NCBI GenBank assembly: GCA_964565195.1
Contig: CAZMCQ010000004.1
Coordinates: 133-64,132 of the forward strand
DNA from: an uncultured Candidatus Saccharibacteria bacterium
GTDB lineage: Bacteria > Patescibacteriota > Doudnabacteria > UBA920 > 2-01-FULL-46-14
DNA: 64,000 bases
Direction of reading: 5' to 3'
Of the stretch, positions 24,864 through 53,665 are shown piece after piece (the stretch's first letter is position 1; each line of letters begins with the position of its first letter). Position numbers and translations under genes: made by a program. The notes under the pieces were generated by a model. That model did not search any database and was not told the origin of the DNA. It was given only the letters and a program-made list of their open reading frames with translations.

Positions 24864-27839
24864 ATGGCGAGACCCGAAGCGCACATTCCCGAAATAAACC
24901 CGCAGCGCGATGCAGATATGCGCCTGATGCCGGCGCGTTCTTTGATGCGTCAGCTTGAGAAACTCGAAAATGAATTCTCTGCAGAGAACACGGACGAGAC
25001 AAAACGGCGTTTGGGAATTATTGAAAAACAAATTATTGAAAAGGCGGGTCCGGAGAATGACCAGCCGAAATCTGACGAATTAACTGATCTATGGTACGAG
25101 CTTTGGGTAAAAGTAAATGGTCTAAAAAATGTTATCGGAACTTACAACAAGGAAACGCCTGCCCCAACTCCAACCGCACAAGTCGTAGATATTGAGCTTG
25201 GCCGCAAAAAGCCGCCGGCAGCCAAAGAAGGGAAAGGTGATGCAAGCGAGGTTGGAGGAGGAACAGGAGCCGCGACAGCTGGTGGCGGCGAGGGCGGCGA
25301 GCCGCCGGATGATGGCGAAAAGAAAAAACTGACCAAAGCGGAAAGGAAAGGGAGCAAAGGAAAGAAGGGGAAAGTCGATGCTGCGGAAGAAGAGCTGGCG
25401 AGCCGCGCGGAAGAGATACGATTTAAACAGGAGGCGGAGGCGGCTGCAAAATTAGCGGCTGAAAAATTGGAGACTGACGAGCAGCCGGCCAAGAAAGAGA
25501 AACACTATGAAGCGATTGGCAACATTGCGCGGCAGAATGCGGTATCGGGTGAGGAATGGCTTCGTGACAAACCGAAACCGGGTTTTGCGGAAGAGGATGC
25601 GCAAAGAATAGCCGAGGCGTTCCAGCAGACAATAGCGGCGCAAACACCTCCCGTGCCGGCGGAAGCAACGCCGGGAGTTTTTGCGGGCAAGGAAGAGCCG
25701 CCCGCCCCGCCGCCTGAAGGCGCGCCAGAGGCAGAACCTGCCCCTGTCCCAACCGCAGGCAGCGGCAAGATTGAGAGGGCGATCAGCGGCCGAGAAAAAC
25801 GAAGCGCGCGCCAGACAGTTGTTGAACAAAATGAGGCGCGCTTTAGAGAGAGAGATGAACGGTTCCGCCAAGCGAAGGCGATGGTCGTCAAGGCCAAAAC
25901 CGGCGATTTTGGCAAAGAGGAAGTCGCAGAATTTGATGAGGTTGCCGGGCCGCTTTTCGAGCACTACCGCGGCCTTCTAAATGTTGCCAAAAGACAAGTT
26001 AAAGCCCATGCCAAACGGAAGCTGGCTGAACTAGACGGAATGCGCAAACTTGTTGAGGCTGGCGAGTTAAAAGGGAAAGCCGAGCAGAACCCCGAGGAGC
26101 GGTTAAGAAACTCGAGGGATTACAAATTGCTGGAAAAGCAGTTTTTGCGCGGCATGAATGTGAGAGAGATGAAATTTAAATTTAATCGCGAAGATGAAAA
26201 GAGGATTGTTGAACTTTTCGAGCGGGATGTGAAGGCAGGACGCGATCCGCTGCAGCGGATCGCTGGAGATATACTTTACAAGGTGCTTGGCGATTACGAT
26301 TTCAATGAACTAAATGCGAAGGACAAAGAGGAATCCGAAAAAAAGTTTCTGGAGGTTGTGCGCCAAGTTTGGAATAATTTCGTCTACGAAAGAAAGGTCA
26401 ACCCGCGGACTGGCCAGTTTGGCATTGGCGAAGGCTCAATGGATACTGACGTCAAGGTGTCGCTTTGGCTTCTCAAAAAAGCGGGTATGGTCGGAGCAGA
26501 GGATGCGCAGTCAGTAAAGGCCGGTGAGGTCGTACCCGGTGCAACCCACGTCGATACCGGGCCGCAAGGCGTTTCCGGAGTCTTTCTCGACCGGCTCGAC
26601 GGAGAAATGATTGCCGGTTTTACCAATCACCCCGAAGGCCGTGATTTCCGAACCTCCAGCGCCAAGATTTTGTTTGAGTTCCTACGCCAGGCCGGTTTTA
26701 TTGAGACGAACGACAGTTCACAGGATGGTTTCAAGCAAAGGCGCGCAATGGAGATGATGGTCCAGTACACAATTGATGAAGATAACGCATCTTTTCCGGT
26801 AAGTAAAGAGGGGAGCATCGCTGATTTTAAAAAAAGCGCTGAAACATTGCGCGGCCTTGGGCGATATCTGTCTGCCGATCAAATGCATGCAGTTTTTATA
26901 GCGTATGATGAGGGCGGACCGTTTGGCGAAACTTATCGGAAAATTTTACAGCGCAAATTCACTCGTGAAGAATTGAGCAATCTAGGATTGCTTGACGAGT
27001 ACAAGCTTGCAGAGTTTCCAAATCGTGATTTTGATTTTGACGCTTACGCCAAGGAATACAGACAAAACAAAATTACGATTCCGGCTTTCGCCCAGTACGC
27101 CATCGAGCAGGCGGGCAGGCGTTTTGACAAATCACCCAAGAGGCGGTTTTCCGAAGGGTGGACGCTTCGGACGCGGTTTGGAAATTATGTCGTGGATATC
27201 GTGCAAGGCCGCGGAGACAAGACACTGGCCGGTTATAATGCCGTACAGGCCTATGGGTTCGATGGTTATATTTCTTATGATGTCCGCAACAACAGCTTTC
27301 TAATCAATACCTTCAATCCCAAAGTTGACTTAAGCCGTGATCCGGGGATTCACGAGCTTCAGAAAAAAACCGGTGCAGTGATTGTTCGCGGCAATATAAT
27401 GATTCGCCCGGGAGCGAAGGACAAACCGTTTAATACCACTCTCAAAGAAATTCTACAGATTCTGACCGGGAAAGAGGAAATTCAAGCCGGGGAGTTGATC
27501 ACCCGCGCTTTGGAACTCGAGAGTAAAGGCGAACTGAAACCCGTCGAGCGATCGGTAGAGAAGTGGAAGAAGAAAAAGAAGAGACAAGAAGCCGCGCCTT
27601 CCCCGAAAGCCAAGGAATTCTCACCCCCTGAAAGGAGAGGGGGCGGGAGTGAAGCGGTAGCAGAAAAAACGGAAAAAGAGAAACAGCGCGAGCAAGTTAC
27701 TAGAGATTGGGAAGAAAAAACAAGGGGTTGGCTCATTGGAGAAAAGAAAACTGAAGAACAAATTCAAAAGTATTTTGACATATTTAGGGATAGCGAAGTT
27801 GAGAAAATAATGAAAATGATCGAGGAAGAAAATGCCTGA
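24864..27839 (+). CDS. Giant (991 aa) charged, K/E/A-rich hypothetical protein with a low-complexity N-terminal third and no signal peptide or TM helices.
   Basis: Long uninterrupted ORF. Its stop overlaps the next start (ATGCCTGA). I recognise no catalytic motif. Confidence 0.7.
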   Translation: MARPEAHIPEINPQRDADMRLMPARSLMRQLEKLENEFSAENTDETKRRLGIIEKQIIEKAGPENDQPKSDELTDLWYELWVKVNGLKNVIGTYNKETPAPTPTAQVVDIELGRKKPPAAKEGKGDASEVGGGTGAATAGGGEGGEPPDDGEKKKLTKAERKGSKGKKGKVDAAEEELASRAEEIRFKQEAEAAAKLAAEKLETDEQPAKKEKHYEAIGNIARQNAVSGEEWLRDKPKPGFAEEDAQRIAEAFQQTIAAQTPPVPAEATPGVFAGKEEPPAPPPEGAPEAEPAPVPTAGSGKIERAISGREKRSARQTVVEQNEARFRERDERFRQAKAMVVKAKTGDFGKEEVAEFDEVAGPLFEHYRGLLNVAKRQVKAHAKRKLAELDGMRKLVEAGELKGKAEQNPEERLRNSRDYKLLEKQFLRGMNVREMKFKFNREDEKRIVELFERDVKAGRDPLQRIAGDILYKVLGDYDFNELNAKDKEESEKKFLEVVRQVWNNFVYERKVNPRTGQFGIGEGSMDTDVKVSLWLLKKAGMVGAEDAQSVKAGEVVPGATHVDTGPQGVSGVFLDRLDGEMIAGFTNHPEGRDFRTSSAKILFEFLRQAGFIETNDSSQDGFKQRRAMEMMVQYTIDEDNASFPVSKEGSIADFKKSAETLRGLGRYLSADQMHAVFIAYDEGGPFGETYRKILQRKFTREELSNLGLLDEYKLAEFPNRDFDFDAYAKEYRQNKITIPAFAQYAIEQAGRRFDKSPKRRFSEGWTLRTRFGNYVVDIVQGRGDKTLAGYNAVQAYGFDGYISYDVRNNSFLINTFNPKVDLSRDPGIHELQKKTGAVIVRGNIMIRPGAKDKPFNTTLKEILQILTGKEEIQAGELITRALELESKGELKPVERSVEKWKKKKKRQEAAPSPKAKEFSPPERRGGGSEAVAEKTEKEKQREQVTRDWEEKTRGWLIGEKKTEEQIQKYFDIFRDSEVEKIMKMIEEENA
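27620..27653 (+). repeat. GC-rich palindromic element in frame in giant protein A (encodes SPPERRGGGSE).
   Basis: tcaccccctgaaaggagagggggcgggagtgaag. Confidence 0.5.
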
Positions 27840-30800
27840 TGGAGAAGGCCACTCACCAGAAGAAGTGCAGCGAATTATCCGCGAAGAGATCGCGGCTAAA
27901 TTTCGCAAACCAAAAGTAGATAAACAAGAACAGCCAGCGGCGGAAAAAATTGAAATTGCCGCGCCGCTGGTGGAATCCGAACTTCCGGCTCCAGAGCCGG
28001 AATTGCCCGCGCCAACCCTGCCGGAGAAAAAAGAGGAACTCCCGCCAGCTGCAAAATTCAAAACGGGTGACCGAGTTCGTCGGTATGTTGTTAGAGATAA
28101 AGACGAAAAGCCGGAGGTAGATCCGACCCCGCGGATCATTCGTGAAGTCAAGCTACGCCCAGGGATGCAAACTGCCTATGTTTTAAGTGACGGCAGTGAA
28201 ACCGTGGAGAGCTGGTTGGAAAAAGCGCCGGACGATGCGCTTGCCGCCAGCCAAGAAATTAAACCTCCTTCCAGCACAGAACCAAAAGTGGAAGCAGAAT
28301 CACAGCCCGAAAGAACTTTAGAACAAACCGTGGCCGAAGTGGCCAAGGATTTCTTCGCGGAGAAGGCCCGGCAGGCCAATTTGTCGGAAGACGAGCAGAG
28401 GCATCTGCGCGCGATGTATGACAAAATAGTTCGTGAAAAAGGTTTTATTGAAAAAGTTTCCGATGCGACGATAGGGAAAATAAAGCAACGGAAATATCTG
28501 GGGTGGGCGCCTGAATTTATCGCATCCGGTGTGAGCGGGTATATTCTTCGCAGCACGGTTCGAAGCGGTCTCGAAGCAGCAATATCACTAGGCACGGTCG
28601 GAACAGGCGCGGGCGTTGGCGCACTCGTCGGCGGCGCGATGGGTTCGTTTTCCGAATACCGGAAAGCAAGAAAAGAAGCGTACGGGGTTGCCAGTTGGGC
28701 TAAGGAGCTTGAAGGCAAGGACAACGTCGTTCTAGCCGGACAATATGAAGCCTTAAAACAAGCGATCGCTGACGCCAAAGTTAAGGGCAATGAAAATGAA
28801 GCTTGGGAACTCGTGATGAAGCTGCGCGATATTGGAACGAAACTGGCGCAGGAGGGGGGGCCTGAACAAATCTTTTCCCAAAGACTGGATGATGACAAAA
28901 CCACAGCCCTTACTGGCGCGCGCGGTGAGATCTATAAAAAAATGTTGGATACACGGAGCAAGCACATCAGAAGTAAAGCAGGCATAGGGCTTCTCAAAGG
29001 AGCGGCTATTGGAGCAGTCGGTGGAACCCTTGGCGCGCTTATCAGCGATTATGTCGCGGGGTGGCGGCATCTCGAGGATTTAAAGACGGCGAAAGCACCG
29101 GTCAATCAGGAGATAATCGATTATGTTCAAGACAGAGCAAGGGAGGCCAAAGAAGCAGCGATTGAGAGATCGCTCGACCATTCCATGGATCAGCTAGCGA
29201 GCCATTCCTTTACCCAGCATGTTCAGAGCGGAGAAGGACTTACGCATGTTGCCCGTGGCTTTATTCATGATTATCTGACACAGGATAACCGTATCAGACT
29301 TTCCCGCGAACAGCTTTTGTACGCGGAGGATTATTTGCAAAAGCATATGACCGACCATCTCCAGCCCGGCCAGGAATATGTACTGAAAGGTCAGCAAATT
29401 TTGGATGCCATCAGTGCCGCGCGAACTTTAACCGAAGATAAGATCGAAAATCTTAAGCAAAATTGGGTATCGAAAGTGGCGGAGAAAGTTTGGGATAGGA
29501 CGCAGGACTATAGCCAGACTTTCGACAGTACTAACCAATTTACGCAAGGATTTGTCAGGGAAGCCCAGGCGCAGGGCGAAGCGGCTGCGCAAAAATATCT
29601 CGATGAAGCCGCGGGAATGTCGCTTGAACAAATGGCAGAAGTTGCCAAAGCAGCCGGCGCGGCAGCGGCTACTGCCGAGCGCAATAATCTAATCATGAGA
29701 TACGTTGCGGGAGCCGTAGGTATAACCGCAGTCGGATTTGGAATAAAAAGAGCTTTTGATCGATTCCGCGCGCCAAAACAGGAAACAAAAACTTCGATGT
29801 TGGGACTGGATGACAAAAAGGGGCCGGAGCCAACCGAACCGCCACGGCCAGGGCCACAGCCTGCGCCCGACCAAGAACTTAGAGATATAATGGGATTGGA
29901 GCCAGAGGAACCACAACCGGTACCCCAAACGCCAAAGTCTGAGAACAAATCGCTGTTAGGATTTCTGAAGCGAAAGAAAGAGGGGCCGCAACTAGACAGG
30001 ACTGCACAGGAAGCAGCGCAAAAGGAAGCAGAAAAATTGGAAGAGGCAAAACAGGCGGCAGATCCGATTATTGCTTGGTACCAGAGCCAAGGATTAGAAG
30101 CAAAGCCAGGGGATGTGTATTACAGAGCAATTATTCCAGAAGACATCGGCAAAGCGAGTGCCAGCACCTTGAGTTTTTCGAATTACTCGGATTACAGGGC
30201 TCATATGGAAAGCCTTTCTCCGTATATAAGGGGTCGTGCGCTCCGTTATGATCGAGTTGGGCCTTTGAGTTCAGAAGAGTTTTGGGAGCAAAAGAATAAA
30301 TTATCTAAGTCAGCATTGACTGAATGGAGAACATCTTATAGCAAAATCCTTTTGGGTTTATATGAAGATAGATTTACGGGAAAGCCGGAATCGGTAATGA
30401 AAACGGAGGAGGAAATGAAGGCGATACGAAAAGAATTGGAAGATGAGTATGGTCTTTATTTTGCAGACGACTGGTCGGTAGGATATGACGCTAATTATTA
30501 TGCGGCGGAAAAAATAAAAGAAGTTTTGCCGAAGATTCCAAAAGAAAGACTAAACCGTGTACGTTTTAAGCCCGCATTAAAGAATGAAATTAGCAAAGAA
30601 GGGATAATTCTTTTCAATCCTGATGCAGGCCCTTCTGAACTCCAGAAGTATATTGGAGATATCGCGCTCGAAGCCGCAAATGTAATTAACACGAAAACTG
30701 AAGATGCCCGAGAGAAAATTTATGAGTTGGAGCGTACATATAATATAGAAGTTTACAGTACCGTCTATGGGGATAAATTTTTGAGAGCAGCGGAAGTTTT

Positions 30801-30987
30801 TAAAGAAGCATTAGCTGGTCAGACAAATTTGCCTTCAGATTTAGGATTTGCCATTTTGAATAGTCCAGAGGATTATCATTACAAAAATCGTATAAACCTC
30901 CTATGGAATATGACGTCGGAGGAAATGCGAACGGAAATAGCAAGATTTTTAGAAAATAAAAACAAAGAAGGGAATCAAAATGGCTGA
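27832..30987 (+). CDS. Giant (1051 aa) hypothetical protein: charged N-terminus, three glycine-zipper hydrophobic segments, a Pro-rich linker, and a C-terminal module of about 290 aa that is compositionally distinct (AT-rich).
   Basis: Segments AISLGTVGTGAGVGALVGGAMGSF, AGIGLLKGAAIGAVGGTLGALISDYVAGW, YVAGAVGITAVGFGI; linker KGPEPTEPPRPGPQPAPDQ...PEEPQPVPQTPK. GC drops from about 55% to about 37% after about 30060. Confidence 0.7.
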   Translation: MPDGEGHSPEEVQRIIREEIAAKFRKPKVDKQEQPAAEKIEIAAPLVESELPAPEPELPAPTLPEKKEELPPAAKFKTGDRVRRYVVRDKDEKPEVDPTPRIIREVKLRPGMQTAYVLSDGSETVESWLEKAPDDALAASQEIKPPSSTEPKVEAESQPERTLEQTVAEVAKDFFAEKARQANLSEDEQRHLRAMYDKIVREKGFIEKVSDATIGKIKQRKYLGWAPEFIASGVSGYILRSTVRSGLEAAISLGTVGTGAGVGALVGGAMGSFSEYRKARKEAYGVASWAKELEGKDNVVLAGQYEALKQAIADAKVKGNENEAWELVMKLRDIGTKLAQEGGPEQIFSQRLDDDKTTALTGARGEIYKKMLDTRSKHIRSKAGIGLLKGAAIGAVGGTLGALISDYVAGWRHLEDLKTAKAPVNQEIIDYVQDRAREAKEAAIERSLDHSMDQLASHSFTQHVQSGEGLTHVARGFIHDYLTQDNRIRLSREQLLYAEDYLQKHMTDHLQPGQEYVLKGQQILDAISAARTLTEDKIENLKQNWVSKVAEKVWDRTQDYSQTFDSTNQFTQGFVREAQAQGEAAAQKYLDEAAGMSLEQMAEVAKAAGAAAATAERNNLIMRYVAGAVGITAVGFGIKRAFDRFRAPKQETKTSMLGLDDKKGPEPTEPPRPGPQPAPDQELRDIMGLEPEEPQPVPQTPKSENKSLLGFLKRKKEGPQLDRTAQEAAQKEAEKLEEAKQAADPIIAWYQSQGLEAKPGDVYYRAIIPEDIGKASASTLSFSNYSDYRAHMESLSPYIRGRALRYDRVGPLSSEEFWEQKNKLSKSALTEWRTSYSKILLGLYEDRFTGKPESVMKTEEEMKAIRKELEDEYGLYFADDWSVGYDANYYAAEKIKEVLPKIPKERLNRVRFKPALKNEISKEGIILFNPDAGPSELQKYIGDIALEAANVINTKTEDAREKIYELERTYNIEVYSTVYGDKFLRAAEVFKEALAGQTNLPSDLGFAILNSPEDYHYKNRINLLWNMTSEEMRTEIARFLENKNKEGNQNG

Positions 30988-48243: not shown

Positions 48244-48669
48244 ATGGAAAGACCGCCATTGCACATTGTTGCCGTAACGGGGGTGGTGATCAACGGAGCA
48301 AGATTTCTAGCCGGAAAAAGATCCGAAGATGAAATAGCATTTCCTGGAAAATATGTTGTACCGGGAGGCAAGGTGGATAATGGAAAAAGCATAGAGGAAA
48401 CACTAAGGGAAGAAATCCGGGAGGAGGCCGGAGTGGAGGTTCAAAATATTTTTTACGTTGGAGATTTTCAGTTTATAAGACCGGATCACAACCCGGTAAT
48501 GGGTTTGGAATTTGGCTGTGAATATATCTCGGGTGAAGTGCAGCCAGGGGAAGACATGGACACTATGGAGTGGTTGACTATTGAGGAAGCAGAAAAATTA
48601 GATTTTATCCCCGGAGTGATTGATTATGTGAAGAAGGCATTTGAACTTTATAATAACCAGCGAAAATAG
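48244..48669 (+). CDS. NUDIX hydrolase.
   Basis: Nudix box GGKVDNGKSIEETLREEIREEAGVEV. Confidence 0.85.
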   Translation: MERPPLHIVAVTGVVINGARFLAGKRSEDEIAFPGKYVVPGGKVDNGKSIEETLREEIREEAGVEVQNIFYVGDFQFIRPDHNPVMGLEFGCEYISGEVQPGEDMDTMEWLTIEEAEKLDFIPGVIDYVKKAFELYNNQRK

Positions 48670-48690: not shown

Positions 48691-51600
48691 ATGTATAGCC
48701 ACAAAAAGATTGAACCGAAGTGGCAGCGTTGGTGGCAGAAGCAGAAACTTTATGCCACGCCGAAGAAGCTGGGCCGGAAAAAGCAGTATGTTTTGGATAT
48801 GTTTCCATACCCTTCGGGCGCGGGGCTGCATGTCGGGCACCCCGAGGGCTATACCGCGACGGACATTTACTCACGCTATTTGCGGATGAACGGCTATAAT
48901 GTGCTGCATCCGATGGGCTGGGACGCGTTTGGGCTGCCGGCGGAAAACTATGCCATCAAAGAGGGAATTCACCCGGCCAAATCGACAGCCGCGAATATCA
49001 AACGCTTTCGCGAGCAGATAAAGATGCTCGGGCTTTCCTATGACTGGGACCGCGAGATAAACACTGCTGATCCTGACTACTATAAATGGACGCAGTGGCT
49101 GTTTTTGAAATTCTACGAGAAAGGCCTCGCGTACCGCAAAGAGGCCAGCGTGAACTGGTGTCCCGAGGACCAGACAGTGCTCGCCAATGAGCAGGTCATC
49201 AATGGCCACTGCGAGCGCTGCGGCACCGCAGTCGTGCAAAAACTTCTGCCACAATGGTTTTTGAAGATCACTGACTATGCCGACCGCCTTCTGGCAGGTT
49301 TGGACAAGATTGATTGGCCGGAGCCGATCAAGCTGATGCAGCGAAACTGGATCGGCCGCTCGGAAGGCGCGGAAATGGAGTTTGGAATCAAGAATCAAGA
49401 ATCAAGAATCAAGAATTTTGTCTTGCTACATGGATTTAATGGTAATCCCTCGGGTGTGTTTTTGCCGTGGGTTGCAAAAGAATTACGAAAAGCGGGATTC
49501 AAAGTTCAAATTCCGCAGTTGCCTAATCCTGCAAATCCGACTGAAGAAGAACAGGTTTGGCATGTGCTAAAAAATATTGAATTTGATGAAAATACAGTTT
49601 TGCTTGGTCATAGTCTTGGTGCAGTTGTCGCTATGAAAGTTCTTGAAAGATTAAATATAAAGATCGCGGGACTTGTTTTGGTGGGCGGTTTCGTTGAGCA
49701 TAATTTCAAAGATAGGCCGCGGCCTTTTGATAAAACTTTTTCCTGGAAGTTTGATTTTTCAAAGATTCGAAAAAAAGCAGGCTTTGTAAAAATTCTAAGT
49801 TCGGTGGATGATTATGCGGTTCCTATCGAACAAGGACGGATATTACAAGAGAAATTGCGAGGCGAATTGGTCGAAATCAAAGGCGAGAAGCCGCATTTTA
49901 CGAATACTGAAGAGCCAGTTGTTTTGGAAGCATTACTGCCGAAGATTAAGATCTTCACCACGCGCCCGGACACGATCTATGGCGCGACATATATGGTGCT
50001 GGCGCCGGAACACCCGCTCGTCGTTTCGCTCCTCGCGTCCACCCCCTCCTTTTCCTCCCCCCTCGAGGGGGAGGAGGGGTGGGGGGGAATTCAAAATCCA
50101 AAGGAAGTCAGAAAATACATTGATGAGGCAAGGAAGAAGACAGAGCTGCAGCGTACCGCGCTTGAGAAGGATAAGACTGGCGTTGAGCTGAAAGGGATCA
50201 AGGCGATCAATCCAGCGACTAAAGAAGAAATTCCGGTCTGGATCGCGGATTATGTCCTGATGGGCTATGGCACAGGCGCCATCATGGCCGTGCCGGCTCA
50301 CGACGAGCGGGATTTTGTTTTTGCAAAAAAATATAAGCTGCCGATTAGAAAGGTAATTATTCCACCGGAAATAGTTAGTGAACCAGTCCAGCCGCCCAGT
50401 CCTGGCGCTTGGGGGCATCTTGACGCGGATTTGGAAGCTGACGTGTGGATTGGAGACGGTAAGCTTGTGAATTCCGGAAAGTTTAACGGACAGGATTCGG
50501 AAAAGGCCAAATGGAAAATAACGGCTTTGGTAAACGGGGTTAAAAAGGTCCAGTACAAACTCCGCGATTGGTTGATAAGTCGCCAGCGGTACTGGGGGGC
50601 GCCGATTCCGATTGTTTATTGTGAGGACTGTGGAATACAGCCGGTTCCTGAAAAAGATCTGCCAGTGAAACTGCCGACAGACGTGGATTTCCGGCCGACT
50701 GGCGAGTCCCCGCTTGCGCGGTCAAAAAGTTTTCATGAAGTGAAATGCCCGAATTGCGGCAAAGCCGCGCGGCGCGATACGGATACAATGGATACATTTG
50801 TGGATTCCTCCTGGTACTATTTGCGTTTCACTGACCCGCACAACAAAAAAGAATTCGCCTCGAAAAAAGAGACAAGTAAATGGTGTCCGGTGGATGTGTA
50901 TGTCGGCGGCGCGGAGCACGCGGTGCTGCACCTGATGTACGCGCGGTTTTTCTGGAAGGCGCTCGCGGATATGAAGCTGGTCAACGGCTCAACCGCGGAT
51001 GAGCCGTTTCTGAAGCTGCGCAATCAGGGTCTGATTTTGGGCCCGGATGGCCAGAAAATGAGCAAATCACGAGGCAATGTGATAAATCCGGACGATGTCG
51101 TGGATGAATATGGCGCGGACTCAATGCGGATGTTCGAGATGTTTATGGGGCCCCTGGAGGACGCCAAGCCTTGGAGTACGCAGGGGATAAAAGGGGTGCG
51201 AAGATTTTTGGAGAAGGGATGGCGATTGTTCTCTGACGTCATTCCCGCGCAGGCGGGAATCCAGACTGGATCCCGGATCAAGTCCGGGATGACAGAAACA
51301 CAAAGACTCCTTCATAAAACCATTAAGAAAGTAGGCGAGGATATTAAATCTTTCAAATTTAACACCGCGGTTTCGGCAATGATGATATTGGTGAATGAAA
51401 TGACCCTTCGACAAGCTCAGGGTATAAATAAAAAAGATTGGGAGACATTTTTGAAACTCCTCGCCCCCTTTGCGCCGCACATGGCCGAGGAGTTATGGCA
51501 GAAATTGGGTCACAAGAAATCCGTTCACCTCGAGCCATGGCCGCAGTATGACGAAAAATTGGTTGAAGAGGAAGAGGTAAATATCGTCGTCCAGGTGAAT

Positions 51601-51756
51601 GGCAAAGTTCGGGCGACTTTTAAGGCGTCGAGGAGCGCGTCGCAGGTCGATATTGAAAAATTGGCCAAAGCAGATGAGAACGTGGCAAAATATCTCGAAG
51701 GCAAAGTCAGGAAAGTTATTTTTGTTCCAGGCAAGGTAATTAACTTCGTCATCTGA
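48691..51756 (+). CDS. leuS: Leucine--tRNA ligase carrying an inserted serine-hydrolase domain and two short palindromic insertions.
   Basis: HVGHPEGY (HIGH), KMSKSRGN, CP1 TTRPDTIYGATY, anticodon-binding region; 1021 aa. Confidence 0.95.
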   Translation: MYSHKKIEPKWQRWWQKQKLYATPKKLGRKKQYVLDMFPYPSGAGLHVGHPEGYTATDIYSRYLRMNGYNVLHPMGWDAFGLPAENYAIKEGIHPAKSTAANIKRFREQIKMLGLSYDWDREINTADPDYYKWTQWLFLKFYEKGLAYRKEASVNWCPEDQTVLANEQVINGHCERCGTAVVQKLLPQWFLKITDYADRLLAGLDKIDWPEPIKLMQRNWIGRSEGAEMEFGIKNQESRIKNFVLLHGFNGNPSGVFLPWVAKELRKAGFKVQIPQLPNPANPTEEEQVWHVLKNIEFDENTVLLGHSLGAVVAMKVLERLNIKIAGLVLVGGFVEHNFKDRPRPFDKTFSWKFDFSKIRKKAGFVKILSSVDDYAVPIEQGRILQEKLRGELVEIKGEKPHFTNTEEPVVLEALLPKIKIFTTRPDTIYGATYMVLAPEHPLVVSLLASTPSFSSPLEGEEGWGGIQNPKEVRKYIDEARKKTELQRTALEKDKTGVELKGIKAINPATKEEIPVWIADYVLMGYGTGAIMAVPAHDERDFVFAKKYKLPIRKVIIPPEIVSEPVQPPSPGAWGHLDADLEADVWIGDGKLVNSGKFNGQDSEKAKWKITALVNGVKKVQYKLRDWLISRQRYWGAPIPIVYCEDCGIQPVPEKDLPVKLPTDVDFRPTGESPLARSKSFHEVKCPNCGKAARRDTDTMDTFVDSSWYYLRFTDPHNKKEFASKKETSKWCPVDVYVGGAEHAVLHLMYARFFWKALADMKLVNGSTADEPFLKLRNQGLILGPDGQKMSKSRGNVINPDDVVDEYGADSMRMFEMFMGPLEDAKPWSTQGIKGVRRFLEKGWRLFSDVIPAQAGIQTGSRIKSGMTETQRLLHKTIKKVGEDIKSFKFNTAVSAMMILVNEMTLRQAQGINKKDWETFLKLLAPFAPHMAEELWQKLGHKKSVHLEPWPQYDEKLVEEEEVNIVVQVNGKVRATFKASRSASQVDIEKLAKADENVAKYLEGKVRKVIFVPGKVINFVI
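49383..49953 (+). other. In-frame insertion encoding a complete YdeN-family serine hydrolase (alpha/beta hydrolase, PF06821-like) within leuS.
   Basis: NFVLLHGFNGNPSGVFLPWVAKELRKAGFKVQIPQLPNP...VLLGHSLGAVVAMKVL...GGFVEHNF...SSVDDYAVP...GEKPHF. It aligns along its length with Bacillus YdeN and is AT-rich relative to the flanks. Confidence 0.75.
50040..50087 (+). repeat. Nested GC-rich palindromic element in frame in leuS (encodes TPSFSSPLEGEEGWGG).
   Basis: caccccctcc-ttt-tcctcccccctcgagggggagga-ggggtggggg. Confidence 0.7.
51237..51293 (+). repeat. Second-type double-hairpin element in frame in the 3' part of leuS.
   Basis: GTCAT-TCCCGC-GCAG-GCGGGA-atccagactgg-ATCCCGGA-tcaag-TCCGGGAT-GAC; encodes VIPAQAGIQTGSRIKSGMT. 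Confidence 0.5.
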
Positions 51757-52427
51757 TGCAGGCGGTAATTCTCGCAGCTGGTTTGGGGACCCGGATGGGC
51801 AGGCTCACCGAGGACACCCCCAAGCCGCTGCTTCGAATAGGAAACAGGACGATTATCGAGCAAAGTTTGGAATCCTTGCCGGAAGAGATCGGCGAGGTGG
51901 TCGTTGTTATTGGTTATCTGGGTGACAAAATAAAACAGTTCTTAGGCAAGGAGTTTGGTGGAAAGAAAATAAAATATGTGATGCAGGCAAAGCTGAAAGG
52001 TACTGCTGACGCGCTCTTTCGGTGCAAGGATTTTCTATATAATGATTTCTTAGTTTTGATGGGGGATGATATTTATTCCAGAGAAGATTTGAGCGAATTA
52101 ACCGGGAAAACACTGGCCATACTGACTTTAGAACTGCAAACCGACGATGTTGCTGGCGAAAAGCACGCCATAGTTAAAACCGATGAAGCGGGCAATGTTA
52201 TGGATATAGTCGAGCGGCAACCAGGTAAAAAGGGGGATTTGGTCAATGCGGGCGCGTATATGCTAAATACCGAAGTCTTTCAGTATCCTCAGGTCAAAGC
52301 CGGCAATCAGACAGAGGAGTTCGGCCTGCCGCAGACTTTTATGCAAATGATCCGGGCTGGCGCGAAAATGCAGGTGGTCAAGGCGAAAAATTGGAGAAAG
52401 ATCACTTCGCCGGAGGACCTCAAATGA
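51756..52427 (+). CDS. Nucleotidyltransferase (sugar-phosphate NTP-transferase family).
   Basis: MQAVILAAGLGTRMGRLTEDTPKPLL; TGATG overlap with leuS. Confidence 0.75.
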   Translation: MQAVILAAGLGTRMGRLTEDTPKPLLRIGNRTIIEQSLESLPEEIGEVVVVIGYLGDKIKQFLGKEFGGKKIKYVMQAKLKGTADALFRCKDFLYNDFLVLMGDDIYSREDLSELTGKTLAILTLELQTDDVAGEKHAIVKTDEAGNVMDIVERQPGKKGDLVNAGAYMLNTEVFQYPQVKAGNQTEEFGLPQTFMQMIRAGAKMQVVKAKNWRKITSPEDLK

Positions 52428-53665
52428 AGATATTTCTAGATTTTGACGGGGTTTTGCACGATACGCGTCGGATGATAGACCGCACCAACACCCTGCTTAA
52501 GAAATTTGGCGTAGACCCGCAGGTGTGGGCTGATTCCTGGGAAGCCATGAGCCAGCCGGATCATTATAAGGTCGGGCTTTACACCATTGAACAGCACGCG
52601 CAGCAATATGCCAAAATTCGTAAATTCAACACAAGAAAATTTGTCGAGGATTATTGGAAGTTTCACGACGGGATTAATTACCTGCACAAAGAGACGCGAG
52701 ATTTTATTAGGAGGGTCAACAAAATTAGCGAGCCGACCCTGCTTACGCATGGCGACCCCGAATTTCAGATGCGTAAGATCACCAGAAGCGGTACGTATAA
52801 ATTAGTCAAAAAGATTGTCGTCGTGCCGAGCTTGAAATCACGCAGCATTGGAAAATTATTGGACAAAAAAGCACTTAATGTGCTGATTGATGACAATCCT
52901 TTTGAAGTTGAGGAGATGAAGCGAAGTTTTCCCAAGGTTGTCGTCATCCACATTAGCCGTCAAATTTTGAGGCATTGGACGAAACCAGTGAGCGCAGATT
53001 TTTATGTGAGCAATCTCAAGCAAGCTCTGGTAATCCTCGAATTGCTGGACGAAACATTCACGAAAGATGCGAGCAAAGTTGTGCAGTATCTCAAAAAAGG
53101 CAAAGCCGTGGTTTATCCCACGGACACGGCTTATGGGCTGGGCGTGGATGCTTTTAATCCAAAAGCCGTGAGAAACCTTTACCGAATCAAAAATCAGAGC
53201 TTGAAAAAACCCGTGCATGTGATTGTGGACAGTGTGGCAATGGTGGAGAAGATCGCAGTACTAGATTCTATTGCTCGAAAACTGATGAAGAAATATTGGC
53301 CGGGCCCGTTGACCTTGGTGCTACCCCTCACCCCCACCCTCTCCCGCAAGGGGAGAGGGGGTTCATGGAAATTACTTTCCAGCGGGACGGGGACGATCGG
53401 CGTGCGAATGCCGGATAATAAGATTGCCTTGCAATTAGTTAGAAAACTTGGTCGGCCAATCACAACCACGTCCGCGAATCTACACGGCGGGCCGACGTCT
53501 TATTCCGCGATTGATTCGTTCAAACAATTTTTCCTCAAAAAGTACCAGCCGGATTTGTATTTGGACGCTGGGGTTTTGCCGAAACAAAAACCATCAACTA
53601 TCATCAAAATAGAACAAAATAAAATAAAAACTTTGCGAAAGGGGCCGATTCGTGCTTCGCCTTAG
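52424..53665 (+). CDS. Fusion protein: HAD-like hydrolase N-domain plus L-threonylcarbamoyladenylate synthase (YrdC/TsaC) C-domain, carrying an in-frame palindromic insertion.
   Basis: N-domain DFDGVLHD (HAD motif I) and LIDDNP (motif IV); C-domain KGKAVVYPTDTAYGLGVDAFNPKAVRNLYRIKNQSLKKPVHV. The track ORF begins at 52391. Confidence 0.7.
   Translation: MKIFLDFDGVLHDTRRMIDRTNTLLKKFGVDPQVWADSWEAMSQPDHYKVGLYTIEQHAQQYAKIRKFNTRKFVEDYWKFHDGINYLHKETRDFIRRVNKISEPTLLTHGDPEFQMRKITRSGTYKLVKKIVVVPSLKSRSIGKLLDKKALNVLIDDNPFEVEEMKRSFPKVVVIHISRQILRHWTKPVSADFYVSNLKQALVILELLDETFTKDASKVVQYLKKGKAVVYPTDTAYGLGVDAFNPKAVRNLYRIKNQSLKKPVHVIVDSVAMVEKIAVLDSIARKLMKKYWPGPLTLVLPLTPTLSRKGRGGSWKLLSSGTGTIGVRMPDNKIALQLVRKLGRPITTTSANLHGGPTSYSAIDSFKQFFLKKYQPDLYLDAGVLPKQKPSTIIKIEQNKIKTLRKGPIRASP
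53324..53361 (+). repeat. GC-rich palindromic element in frame in the HAD-YrdC gene (encodes PLTPTLSRKGRGGS).
   Basis: cccctcacccccaccctctcccgcaaggggagaggg; its 21-mer core matches the parB copy. Confidence 0.75.

Follow-up and report, generated by a model that had tools for sequence, protein, structure and literature searches.

Aminoacyl-tRNA synthetases are among the most conserved enzymes, and their accessory domains have repeatedly been found to proofread or to signal. In the class Ia leucyl-, isoleucyl- and valyl-tRNA synthetases (LeuRS, IleRS and ValRS), the hydrolytic CP1 domain is set into the Rossmann core via two linker strands and acts on the aminoacyl ester. Domain insertions in synthetases as such are already known, as illustrated by the NCBIfam exception model NF040702 (isoleucine--tRNA ligase, N-acetyltransferase domain-containing), in which a GNAT enzyme domain likewise lies inside a class Ia synthetase. 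A domain-insertion survey from 2026 reported LeuRS editing domains exclusively as guests and never as hosts (PMC13114784). Here, we analyzed the LeuRS gene (leuS) on a 64,000-nucleotide stretch of bacterial DNA (contig CAZMCQ010000004.1, positions 133 to 64,132; hereafter the window), in which a further enzyme domain sits at the root of CP1. This domain is almost certainly a complete serine hydrolase of the YdeN/RBBP9 type, which occupies the tip of the first CP1 hairpin and is connected to it by two short linkers. The fold of the insert is unrelated to that of CP1, which lacks a serine nucleophile; CP1 is also universal, whereas the hydrolase is lineage-specific and dispensable. Compared with NF040702, both guest and host differ.

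The closest structural counterparts of the insert are YdeN (PDB 1uxo) and RBBP9 (PDB 2qs9, 7oex), which resemble it with template-modeling (TM) scores of 0.80-0.85, root-mean-square deviations (rmsd) of 2.1-3.4 Å and 22-28% sequence identity, and share its Ser-Asp-His triad positions and HG motif. Unlike the window hydrolase, which is embedded in a synthetase, both proteins are free-standing. To our knowledge, YdeN has no known substrate and RBBP9 is the only characterized member of the family. Two residues of the hydrophobic cage of RBBP9 (Tyr99 and Leu103) correspond to conserved Phe334 and Phe339 of the insert, whereas its cage residues Phe140 and Leu141 align with Ala376 and Val377, and pocket and substrate may therefore differ. 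Several extra enzymes act on aminoacyl-tRNA or on mimics of aminoacyl-adenylates and can be genetically linked to synthetases, including YbaK/ProXp, AlaX, Dtd, the serine peptidase MccF and the GNAT protein MccE. These free-standing deacylases and MccF/MccE share no sequence or fold kinship with the insert, and their likeness to it is functional speculation. Neither a serine hydrolase nor a NUDIX domain within LeuRS, nor any such synthetase insertion in bacteria of the Candidate Phyla Radiation (CPR) or in DPANN archaea, was found described in a full-text literature search. The architecture is visible in databases, annotated as 'leucine--tRNA ligase' or 'alpha/beta fold hydrolase', yet it is apparently unstudied.

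The hydrolase insert and its host synthetase

The leuS gene occupies positions 48691-51756 on the forward strand of the window as a single uninterrupted open reading frame (ORF) of 1021 codons plus stop, as an initial annotation made from the sequence alone had stated. Its product is identical to a protein deposited at NCBI as 'MAG: leucine--tRNA ligase [Candidatus Doudnabacteria bacterium]' (P0004; MAG, metagenome-assembled genome), and the gene encodes the LeuRS of a Doudnabacteria-like (Patescibacteria/CPR) organism. The profile TIGR00396 (leuS_bact) matched with 1065 bits (cut-off 548) in two stretches on either side of the insert, the second of which (aa 418-1021) corresponds to profile positions 239-842. 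A Pfam scan of the protein identified the class I core, the editing domain and the anticodon-binding domain, with PF06821 (Ser_hydrolase) placed between core and editing domain. The N-terminal catalytic (Rossmann) core (aa 1-231; 48691-49383, forward strand) was delimited with Pfam tRNA-synt_1 over aa 10-211 and by alignment to residues 193-243 of Thermus thermophilus LeuRS; it contains the HVGH motif, and its last strand (GAEMEF) runs into CP1. The CP1 editing domain (aa 418-627; 49942-50571, forward strand) was likewise recognized by Pfam (tRNA-synt_1_2 over aa 418-612; PF13603, LeuRS editing domain, 195.8 bits) and has intact TTRPDT and GTG...HDERD motifs.

In the translation, the class I signatures HVGH and KMSKS are found at aa 47-50 and aa 789-793. 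For comparison, the 120 closest LeuRS matches (the window protein and 119 relatives) were aligned, and H47, G49, H50, M790 and K792 were invariant in 120/120 sequences, as were T423, T424, R425, D427, T428, H537, D538, R540 and D541 of CP1. Since the CP1 editing motifs are invariant throughout this set, the hydrolase is an addition to CP1 and not a substitute for it.

Alignment with the 119 relatives delimited the insert to aa 232-417 (~186 residues; 49384-49941, forward strand), where it stands in place of the ~8-11-residue tip of the first CP1 beta-hairpin. Relatives that have no insert carry an 11-residue loop from ...GAE[IM]EF to KIK[IV]FTTRPDT, and in the alignment with T. thermophilus LeuRS the insert replaces the loop near residues 236-243, at the tip of the first CP1 hairpin and just before the Thr-rich editing motif. 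The initial annotation had placed about 190 extra residues at 49383-49953; the end coordinate lies four codons too far downstream. Within the insert, 177 residues (aa 241-417; 49411-49941, forward strand) make up a folded domain, an alpha/beta serine hydrolase that belongs to the YdeN/RBBP9 family (PF06821), as established from Pfam, PDB sequence matches, AlphaFold2 (AF2) and Foldseek. When searched alone, the segment 49384-49953 aligned with positions 2-154 of the 172-position PF06821 profile and scored 35.6 bits (cut-off 22, E 1e-8), and the insert sequence matched Bacillus subtilis YdeN (1uxo) with an E-value of 1e-16 and human RBBP9 with an E-value of 8e-12. Homology to known editing or trans-editing domains (CP1, INS/YbaK, AlaX, ThrRS N2, Dtd) was not detected, as Pfam and NCBIfam gave only alpha/beta-hydrolase families for the insert.

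The structural models were consistent with these assignments. The insert modeled on its own with AF2 (30 aligned sequences) reached a mean predicted local distance difference test score (pLDDT) of 95.4 and a predicted TM score (pTM) of 0.92, with disorder confined to the first 5-10 residues. Foldseek comparison of this model with the PDB returned 1uxo (TM 0.83/0.85, rmsd 2.1 Å) and RBBP9 (7oex, TM 0.80-0.83), while none of the further PDB matches, all of them alpha/beta hydrolases, was better than E 4e-7, six orders of magnitude weaker. Searching Pfam and structure databases with the insert alone, as had been proposed as a check, hence returned a hydrolase fold and not a LeuRS-specific insertion family, which upheld the initial assignment to YdeN/PF06821. 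In the full-length AF2 model (pLDDT 90.0, pTM 0.84) the hydrolase part scored 94-98 throughout and the flanking strands 223-233 and 418-423 were kept; low-confidence parts were limited to a palindromic element in CP1 (see below) and to lineage-specific stretches at aa 568-578 and 855-863. Alignment and models agree with the earlier view of a domain-insertion fusion at the boundary between core and CP1.

Inteins typically reside as large in-frame insertions in genes that are essential and highly conserved, and an intein or another self-splicing or mobile protein element would be removed from the mature LeuRS. However, no Hint or intein family was matched by Pfam in the LeuRS insert, which begins with Gly232, ends in ...LLP followed by KIKIF, and carries no C-terminal His-Asn followed by Cys, Ser or Thr. 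Together with the alpha/beta hydrolase fold, these features leave next to no room for such an element, in keeping with the initial annotation, which had seen no intein signatures.

An insert of 172-233 residues was found at the identical site in 96 of the 120 best LeuRS matches, which allowed conservation of the catalytic residues to be assessed. The HG (oxyanion-hole) motif after the first strand (H247-G248; 49429-49434, forward strand, as for the residues that follow) is kept in 89/96 inserts. The nucleophile Ser308 (49612-49614) lies in a GHSLG elbow, aligns with RBBP9 Ser75 and the HSLG of YdeN, and is kept in 93/96 inserts, and the triad is completed by the acid Asp374 (49810-49812; kept in 90/96, aligned with RBBP9 Asp138) and the base His402 (49894-49896; kept in 91/96, aligned with RBBP9 His165). 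The Ser/Asp/His triad noted initially is thereby located by alignment to YdeN and RBBP9. Judged by sequence, host and guest are both intact, with HIGH, KMSKS and the CP1 editing motifs present in the one and the Ser308-Asp374-His402 triad and the HG motif in the other. Mean pairwise identity among the 96 inserts was 0.41, compared to 0.58 for their host LeuRS. Because HG, Ser, Asp and His were nevertheless each kept in 93-97% of inserts, the module is probably a catalytically active hydrolase. Alternatively, the fold could have been retained as a non-catalytic scaffold with a structural or binding role, for example in docking tRNA, the host cell or another protein as partner, an idea that would fit the first description of RBBP9 as a binding protein and the few relatives with altered elbows or lost triad residues (3-7 of 96; e.g., P0180). 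Retention of the catalytic positions at ~41% mean identity speaks against a scaffold, which we regard as improbable.

Distribution of the insert and other settings of the module

Named carriers of the insert among the 120 LeuRS were Doudna-, Sung-, Komeili-, Uhr-, Kerfeld-, Vogel-, Campbell-, Woese-, Kaiser- and Falkowbacteria as well as Paceibacterota, all of which are Patescibacteria. A genome scan using one genome per GTDB species, in which mainly the GHSLG subtype was sampled, yielded 96 confirmed loci, of which 80 were kept. In 80/80 retained loci the N-core, hydrolase, CP1 and C-core were encoded in one frame. The titles of these loci add Curtiss-, Levyi-, Taylor-, Nomura- and Spechtbacteria and others, and the 80 loci include MAGs labelled Woesearchaeota, Pacearchaeota and Nanoarchaeota that encode a bacterial-type LeuRS with the same insert. 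The question raised initially, whether relatives carry the same insertion, was therefore answered positively in both sets: the hydrolase-in-LeuRS architecture is shared by at least 80 related species, which represent many lineages of the CPR and also include some DPANN archaea. The catalytic triad is retained in ~94% of the carriers. Apparent rarity of the insert, as indicated by only three matches in a word-indexed search with the insert alone, was a limit of the index, which missed even an identical protein, and was overturned by full-length and exhaustive profile searches.

The recurrence of this architecture in independent assemblies of many species excludes an assembly error, a pseudogene or a one-off fusion. 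Suspicion of an artifact or dead gene (i.e., a chimeric assembly, or a leuS pseudogene disrupted by foreign DNA) could be drawn from the sharp drop in GC content at third codon positions (GC3) at both junctions, from a slippage-prone heptamer repeat at the 5' junction, and from the contig of one relative (L001) that is truncated at its 5' end and in which the hydrolase is followed by an in-frame TAA. Against this, the window frame is intact over 1021 codons, independent assemblies of at least 80 species and the NCBI record of the window protein have the same architecture, all LeuRS motifs are invariant and the full-length AF2 model is confident, so that this explanation is effectively refuted. 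In L001 (JGI contig Ga0416814_0279862, 198-2912), a leuS relative with 49% identity, the single in-frame TAA lies exactly between hydrolase and CP1 and the first ~85 codons are replaced by unrelated sequence; possible explanations are a split gene, a pseudogene or chimerism of this short contig.

Three close relatives (P0116, P0063 and P0118) have a LeuRS that lacks the insert and no hydrolase gene beside leuS, although synteny is conserved, and the hydrolase module is therefore dispensable. Among close relatives, the gene order TatD - leuS - Sua5 - MFS (major facilitator superfamily) - SHMT (serine hydroxymethyltransferase) is kept with or without the insert (L092, L093 and L094 being insert-less). 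P0116 is the smallest relative at 757 aa, and its CP1 region is much reduced (138 residues).

Among the DPANN-labelled MAGs, the insert was seen together with a shortened LeuRS C-terminus in L006, L032, L040, L041, L053, L054, L058, L062, L069, L072 and L085. On the archaeal-looking contigs L002, L089 and L090, the hydrolase is a separate gene just upstream of leuS; all three contigs carry ribosomal L13-S9, and L002 also carries RNA_pol_N/RNA_pol_L genes. These arrangements suggest that hydrolase and leuS were transferred as a unit between CPR bacteria and DPANN archaea.

When 1.84 billion cluster representatives were searched exhaustively with a profile, 264 matches were returned at E <= 1e-30, and the module was observed in further settings. 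It was located after CP1 rather than before it in P0129 and P0180, was duplicated in tandem in P0183, and was found together with a NUDIX domain positioned before, within or after CP1 in P0145, P0150, P0160, P0171 and P0178 (Pfam scans). In LeuRS P0196 it adjoins a GNAT domain, recalling NF040702, and in P0179 an IS200-type Y1 transposase domain. A different class Ia synthetase, ValRS P0165, also contains the module with its GHSLG/D/H triad intact. A NUDIX insert of ~150 residues lies inside CP1 in ~38/120 LeuRS. With NUDIX, GNAT and IS200-type transposase domains in or beside the CP1 of relatives, the insertion hotspot that the initial annotation had suspected gains further support. Further Pfam families were listed for relatives with their position unmapped (Y1 transposase in P0090, Ham1/ITPase in P0122/P0123, methyltransferase in P0059), and some of these LeuRS relatives reach 1200-1300 residues.

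The closest free-standing homologues of the insert (P0127, P0133, P0138 and P0002) are encoded directly upstream of leuS on the same strand. Gaps to leuS are 7 nt for P0127, 36 nt for P0133 and 24 nt for P0138, while the LeuRS match next to P0002 starts ~220 nt downstream. Overall, 4/5 informative free-standing contexts adjoin leuS, the fifth (P0135) having no leuS nearby, and the context of P0143 was uninformative. As these free-standing homologues adjoin leuS, an ultimate origin of the module as a separate gene is supported.

Possible roles of the inserted hydrolase

We favor functional coupling of the hydrolase to LeuRS, at about even odds, over a module that merely travels with it. Coupling is argued for by the repeated and independent ties of the same module to leuS, as a neighboring gene, before CP1 and after CP1, and by its presence in ValRS. 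In the mechanism we propose, the tethered hydrolase at the base of CP1 would cleave an ester or amide bond to an amino-acyl group near the site of its synthesis, working alongside CP1 and not in its place. Candidate substrates would be mis-acylated or unwanted aminoacyl-tRNA 3' ends, aminoacyl-adenylate-like compounds (including inhibitor mimics), and esters or peptides that yield leucine, with homocysteine thiolactone as a further candidate. Any one of these, named as the actual substrate by analogy, is an unlikely choice.

The candidate chemistry was chosen because of what is described for RBBP9 and because an aminoacyl ester on ribose is the product of LeuRS. Editing synthetases also generate homocysteine thiolactone. 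A paper cited in PMC7730578 reports RBBP9 as an activating enzyme of valacyclovir, a valyl-ester prodrug. BPHL, another valacyclovir-activating serine hydrolase, is an efficient homocysteine thiolactonase (PMC4198189). The serine of RBBP9 is acylated by single free-amine hydrophobic amino acids, for which the free alpha-amine is required, and the bond cleaved by RBBP9 has been described as 'amide (or ester or thioester)' (PMC8866121).

Several observations weigh against a dedicated role in aminoacylation. In the sequence alignment alone, the RBBP9 residues that anchor the amine, Glu108 and Ser76, correspond to Arg344 or Asp341 and to Leu309 of the insert, and since these positions differ, specificity for free-amine aminoacyl groups is not demonstrably conserved. 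In one LeuRS with the module (P0180), both the Asp and the His of the elbow seem to have been lost. The module is dispensable, as its absence from P0116, P0063 and P0118 indicates, and it is not confined to aminoacyl-tRNA synthetases: it is inserted in a UvrA-like protein (P0206, aa 200-375) and is fused to NUDIX (P0239, P0256), Peptidase_S51 (P0217) and methyltransferase (P0268) domains in proteins without a synthetase. Moreover, the CP1 region hosts domains that have no obvious link to aminoacylation, such as the IS200-type transposase domain of P0179.

These points are also what makes a permissive-loop passenger a strong rival. According to this explanation, the module would be a housekeeping esterase or peptidase (e.g., one by which an auxotrophic CPR cell salvages amino acids from peptides) that is selected for itself and has no link to aminoacylation or editing. 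It is favored by the mixture of NUDIX, GNAT and IS200 Y1 transposase domains in or beside CP1, with Ham1 and methyltransferase families also listed, by the occurrence of the same module in UvrA and in fusions with S51 peptidase, NUDIX and methyltransferase elsewhere, and by close relatives that manage without it. The insert also evolves faster than its host (identity 0.41 vs 0.58), its synonymous composition lies at the low-constraint end of the genome, and gene adjacency could cause local insertions rather than mark a shared function. On the other hand, it is unlikely to be by chance that 4/5 informative free-standing homologues lie directly upstream of leuS in genomes of about a thousand genes, and at least two distinct sites of LeuRS have received the module, as has ValRS, another class Ia synthetase with CP1 editing. 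We consider a passenger role a serious contender that falls somewhat short of an even chance. In P0206, conserved glycines read as tryptophans (WHSLWW), which suggests that its organism uses genetic code 25 (UGA = Gly) and that its genes were translated with UGA as Trp.

Taken further, functional coupling could mean that the hydrolase is one of a new, alpha/beta-hydrolase-fold class of synthetase-integrated quality-control or self-defense modules which, together with NUDIX and GNAT domains, would clear aminoacyl esters and adenylate-like compounds; this wider proposal is tentative and rather doubtful. If it were true, the LeuRS of many Patescibacteria and DPANN archaea, and sometimes their ValRS, would bear an additional site in cis for proofreading or detoxification. 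A whole radiation of ultra-small, host-dependent bacteria and archaea carries a serine hydrolase inside LeuRS whose catalytic residues are intact by sequence, often together with NUDIX. If this enzyme acted on aminoacyl-tRNA or adenylate-like compounds, it would represent a new structural class of editing or inhibitor-resistance domain and give an initial hint at a physiological substrate in the YdeN/RBBP9 family, which is poorly understood. As a mere passenger, it would be a clean and abundant natural case of streamlined genomes nesting whole enzymes in the loops of essential proteins.

Composition of the insert, small in-frame insertions and neighboring genes

The insert differs in composition from the rest of leuS, with a GC content of 0.38-0.39 compared to 0.52-0.58 in its flanks and a GC3 of 0.32-0.34 compared to 0.70 in the N-terminal and 0.59 in the C-terminal part of leuS, and the edges of this drop are sharp. 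In segments of 170 codons, GC3 averages 0.617 +/- 0.098 across the window; the insert lies three standard deviations lower, at a value matched within the window by the tail of the ORF at 27832-30987 alone. This ORF (forward strand, 1051 aa) has no Pfam match, and its last ~300 codons have a GC3 of 0.32-0.38; the tail may be another fast-evolving or acquired segment.

The initial annotation had noted the AT-richness and read it as a sign of foreign origin. The composition itself was confirmed (GC3 0.32 vs ~0.6-0.7), but the origin drawn from it is not secure. Insert GC3 is below that of the LeuRS body in 72/77 related loci with a mean difference of -0.066, among which the window (-0.29) is extreme. 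Furthermore, the insert is common to the window and its closest relative (P0005), in which the GC3 dip is milder, and the synonymous sites of leuS are saturated between the two. Both the bias in 72/77 loci and the saturation against P0005 weaken the case for attributing the low GC3 to a recent horizontal import. The low GC3 represents a persistent, family-wide bias, and weaker selection on a faster-evolving segment fits at least as well as recent import.

Over longer times the module may have moved between hosts. Identities of insert and host correlate poorly (Pearson r = 0.28), and the GHSLG/GHSFG elbow subtype, for which shuffling gives an expectation of 18 changes, requires 12 on the host tree but 5 on the insert tree (crude neighbor-joining trees from 175 columns). 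This hints at exchange of the module between lineages.

At the 5' edge of the insert, the tandem heptamer GAATCAA is repeated 4.6 times (49385-49416, forward strand; Tandem Repeats Finder, period 7, 100% identical) and encodes the linker GIKNQESRIKN. No other perfect repeat in the window exceeds three copies. The initial annotation had described a perfect heptamer as the junction of the insertion; the repeat stands, but its role as junction does not, as the array is specific to the window, absent from the relatives, and adds ~4 residues compared to other LeuRS of the alignment. It has lengthened the flexible N-terminal linker in the window and is not a junction scar. pLDDT of the heptamer-encoded linker ranged from below 50 to 75 in AF2. 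In a frameshift simulation, gain of one heptamer unit led to a stop at codon 252 and loss of one unit to a stop at codon 291; the frame is preserved only if the number of units changes by a multiple of three. An exact-pattern scan of JGI metagenome contigs for the heptamer junction, in which the copy number was free to vary, gave no match.

A G/C-rich palindromic element, translated in frame as STPSFSSPLEGEEGWGG, was located at 50038-50088 (forward strand) with arms at 50042-50061 and 50067-50086, matching the palindrome placed at 50040-50087 initially. It is single-copy in the window, folds as RNA with -40.2 kcal/mol, and adds 16-17 residues in frame to a disordered CP1 loop, an insertion that is confined to the window and absent even from the closest relative. 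The palindrome is an event separate from the hydrolase insertion; it looks as if a small palindromic element had recently entered an essential gene in frame. Two more stretches are common only to the window and P0005 and have pLDDT below 50, namely a hairpin-rich element at 51241-51297, in frame as IPAQAGIQTGSRIKSGMTE, and a Pro-rich loop, PPEIVSEPVQPPSPGAWGHLDADLEADVW, at 50362-50448. The leuS of the window lineage has gathered several such small in-frame insertions of DNA elements.

A NUDIX gene of 141 aa (48244-48669, forward strand) ends 21 nt upstream of leuS. It was considered as the unfused counterpart of the NUDIX domain found in CP1 of relatives, but the likeness is restricted to the Nudix box (hmmsearch, 14 bits) and the link is unproven. 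Downstream, the Sua5/YrdC-family protein (52391-53665, forward strand) has a ~220-residue N-terminal extension with weak similarity to haloacid dehalogenase (HAD) hydrolases. The syntenic Sua5 proteins of relatives are only ~200 aa long, and the extension in the window is another lineage-specific domain addition next to leuS.

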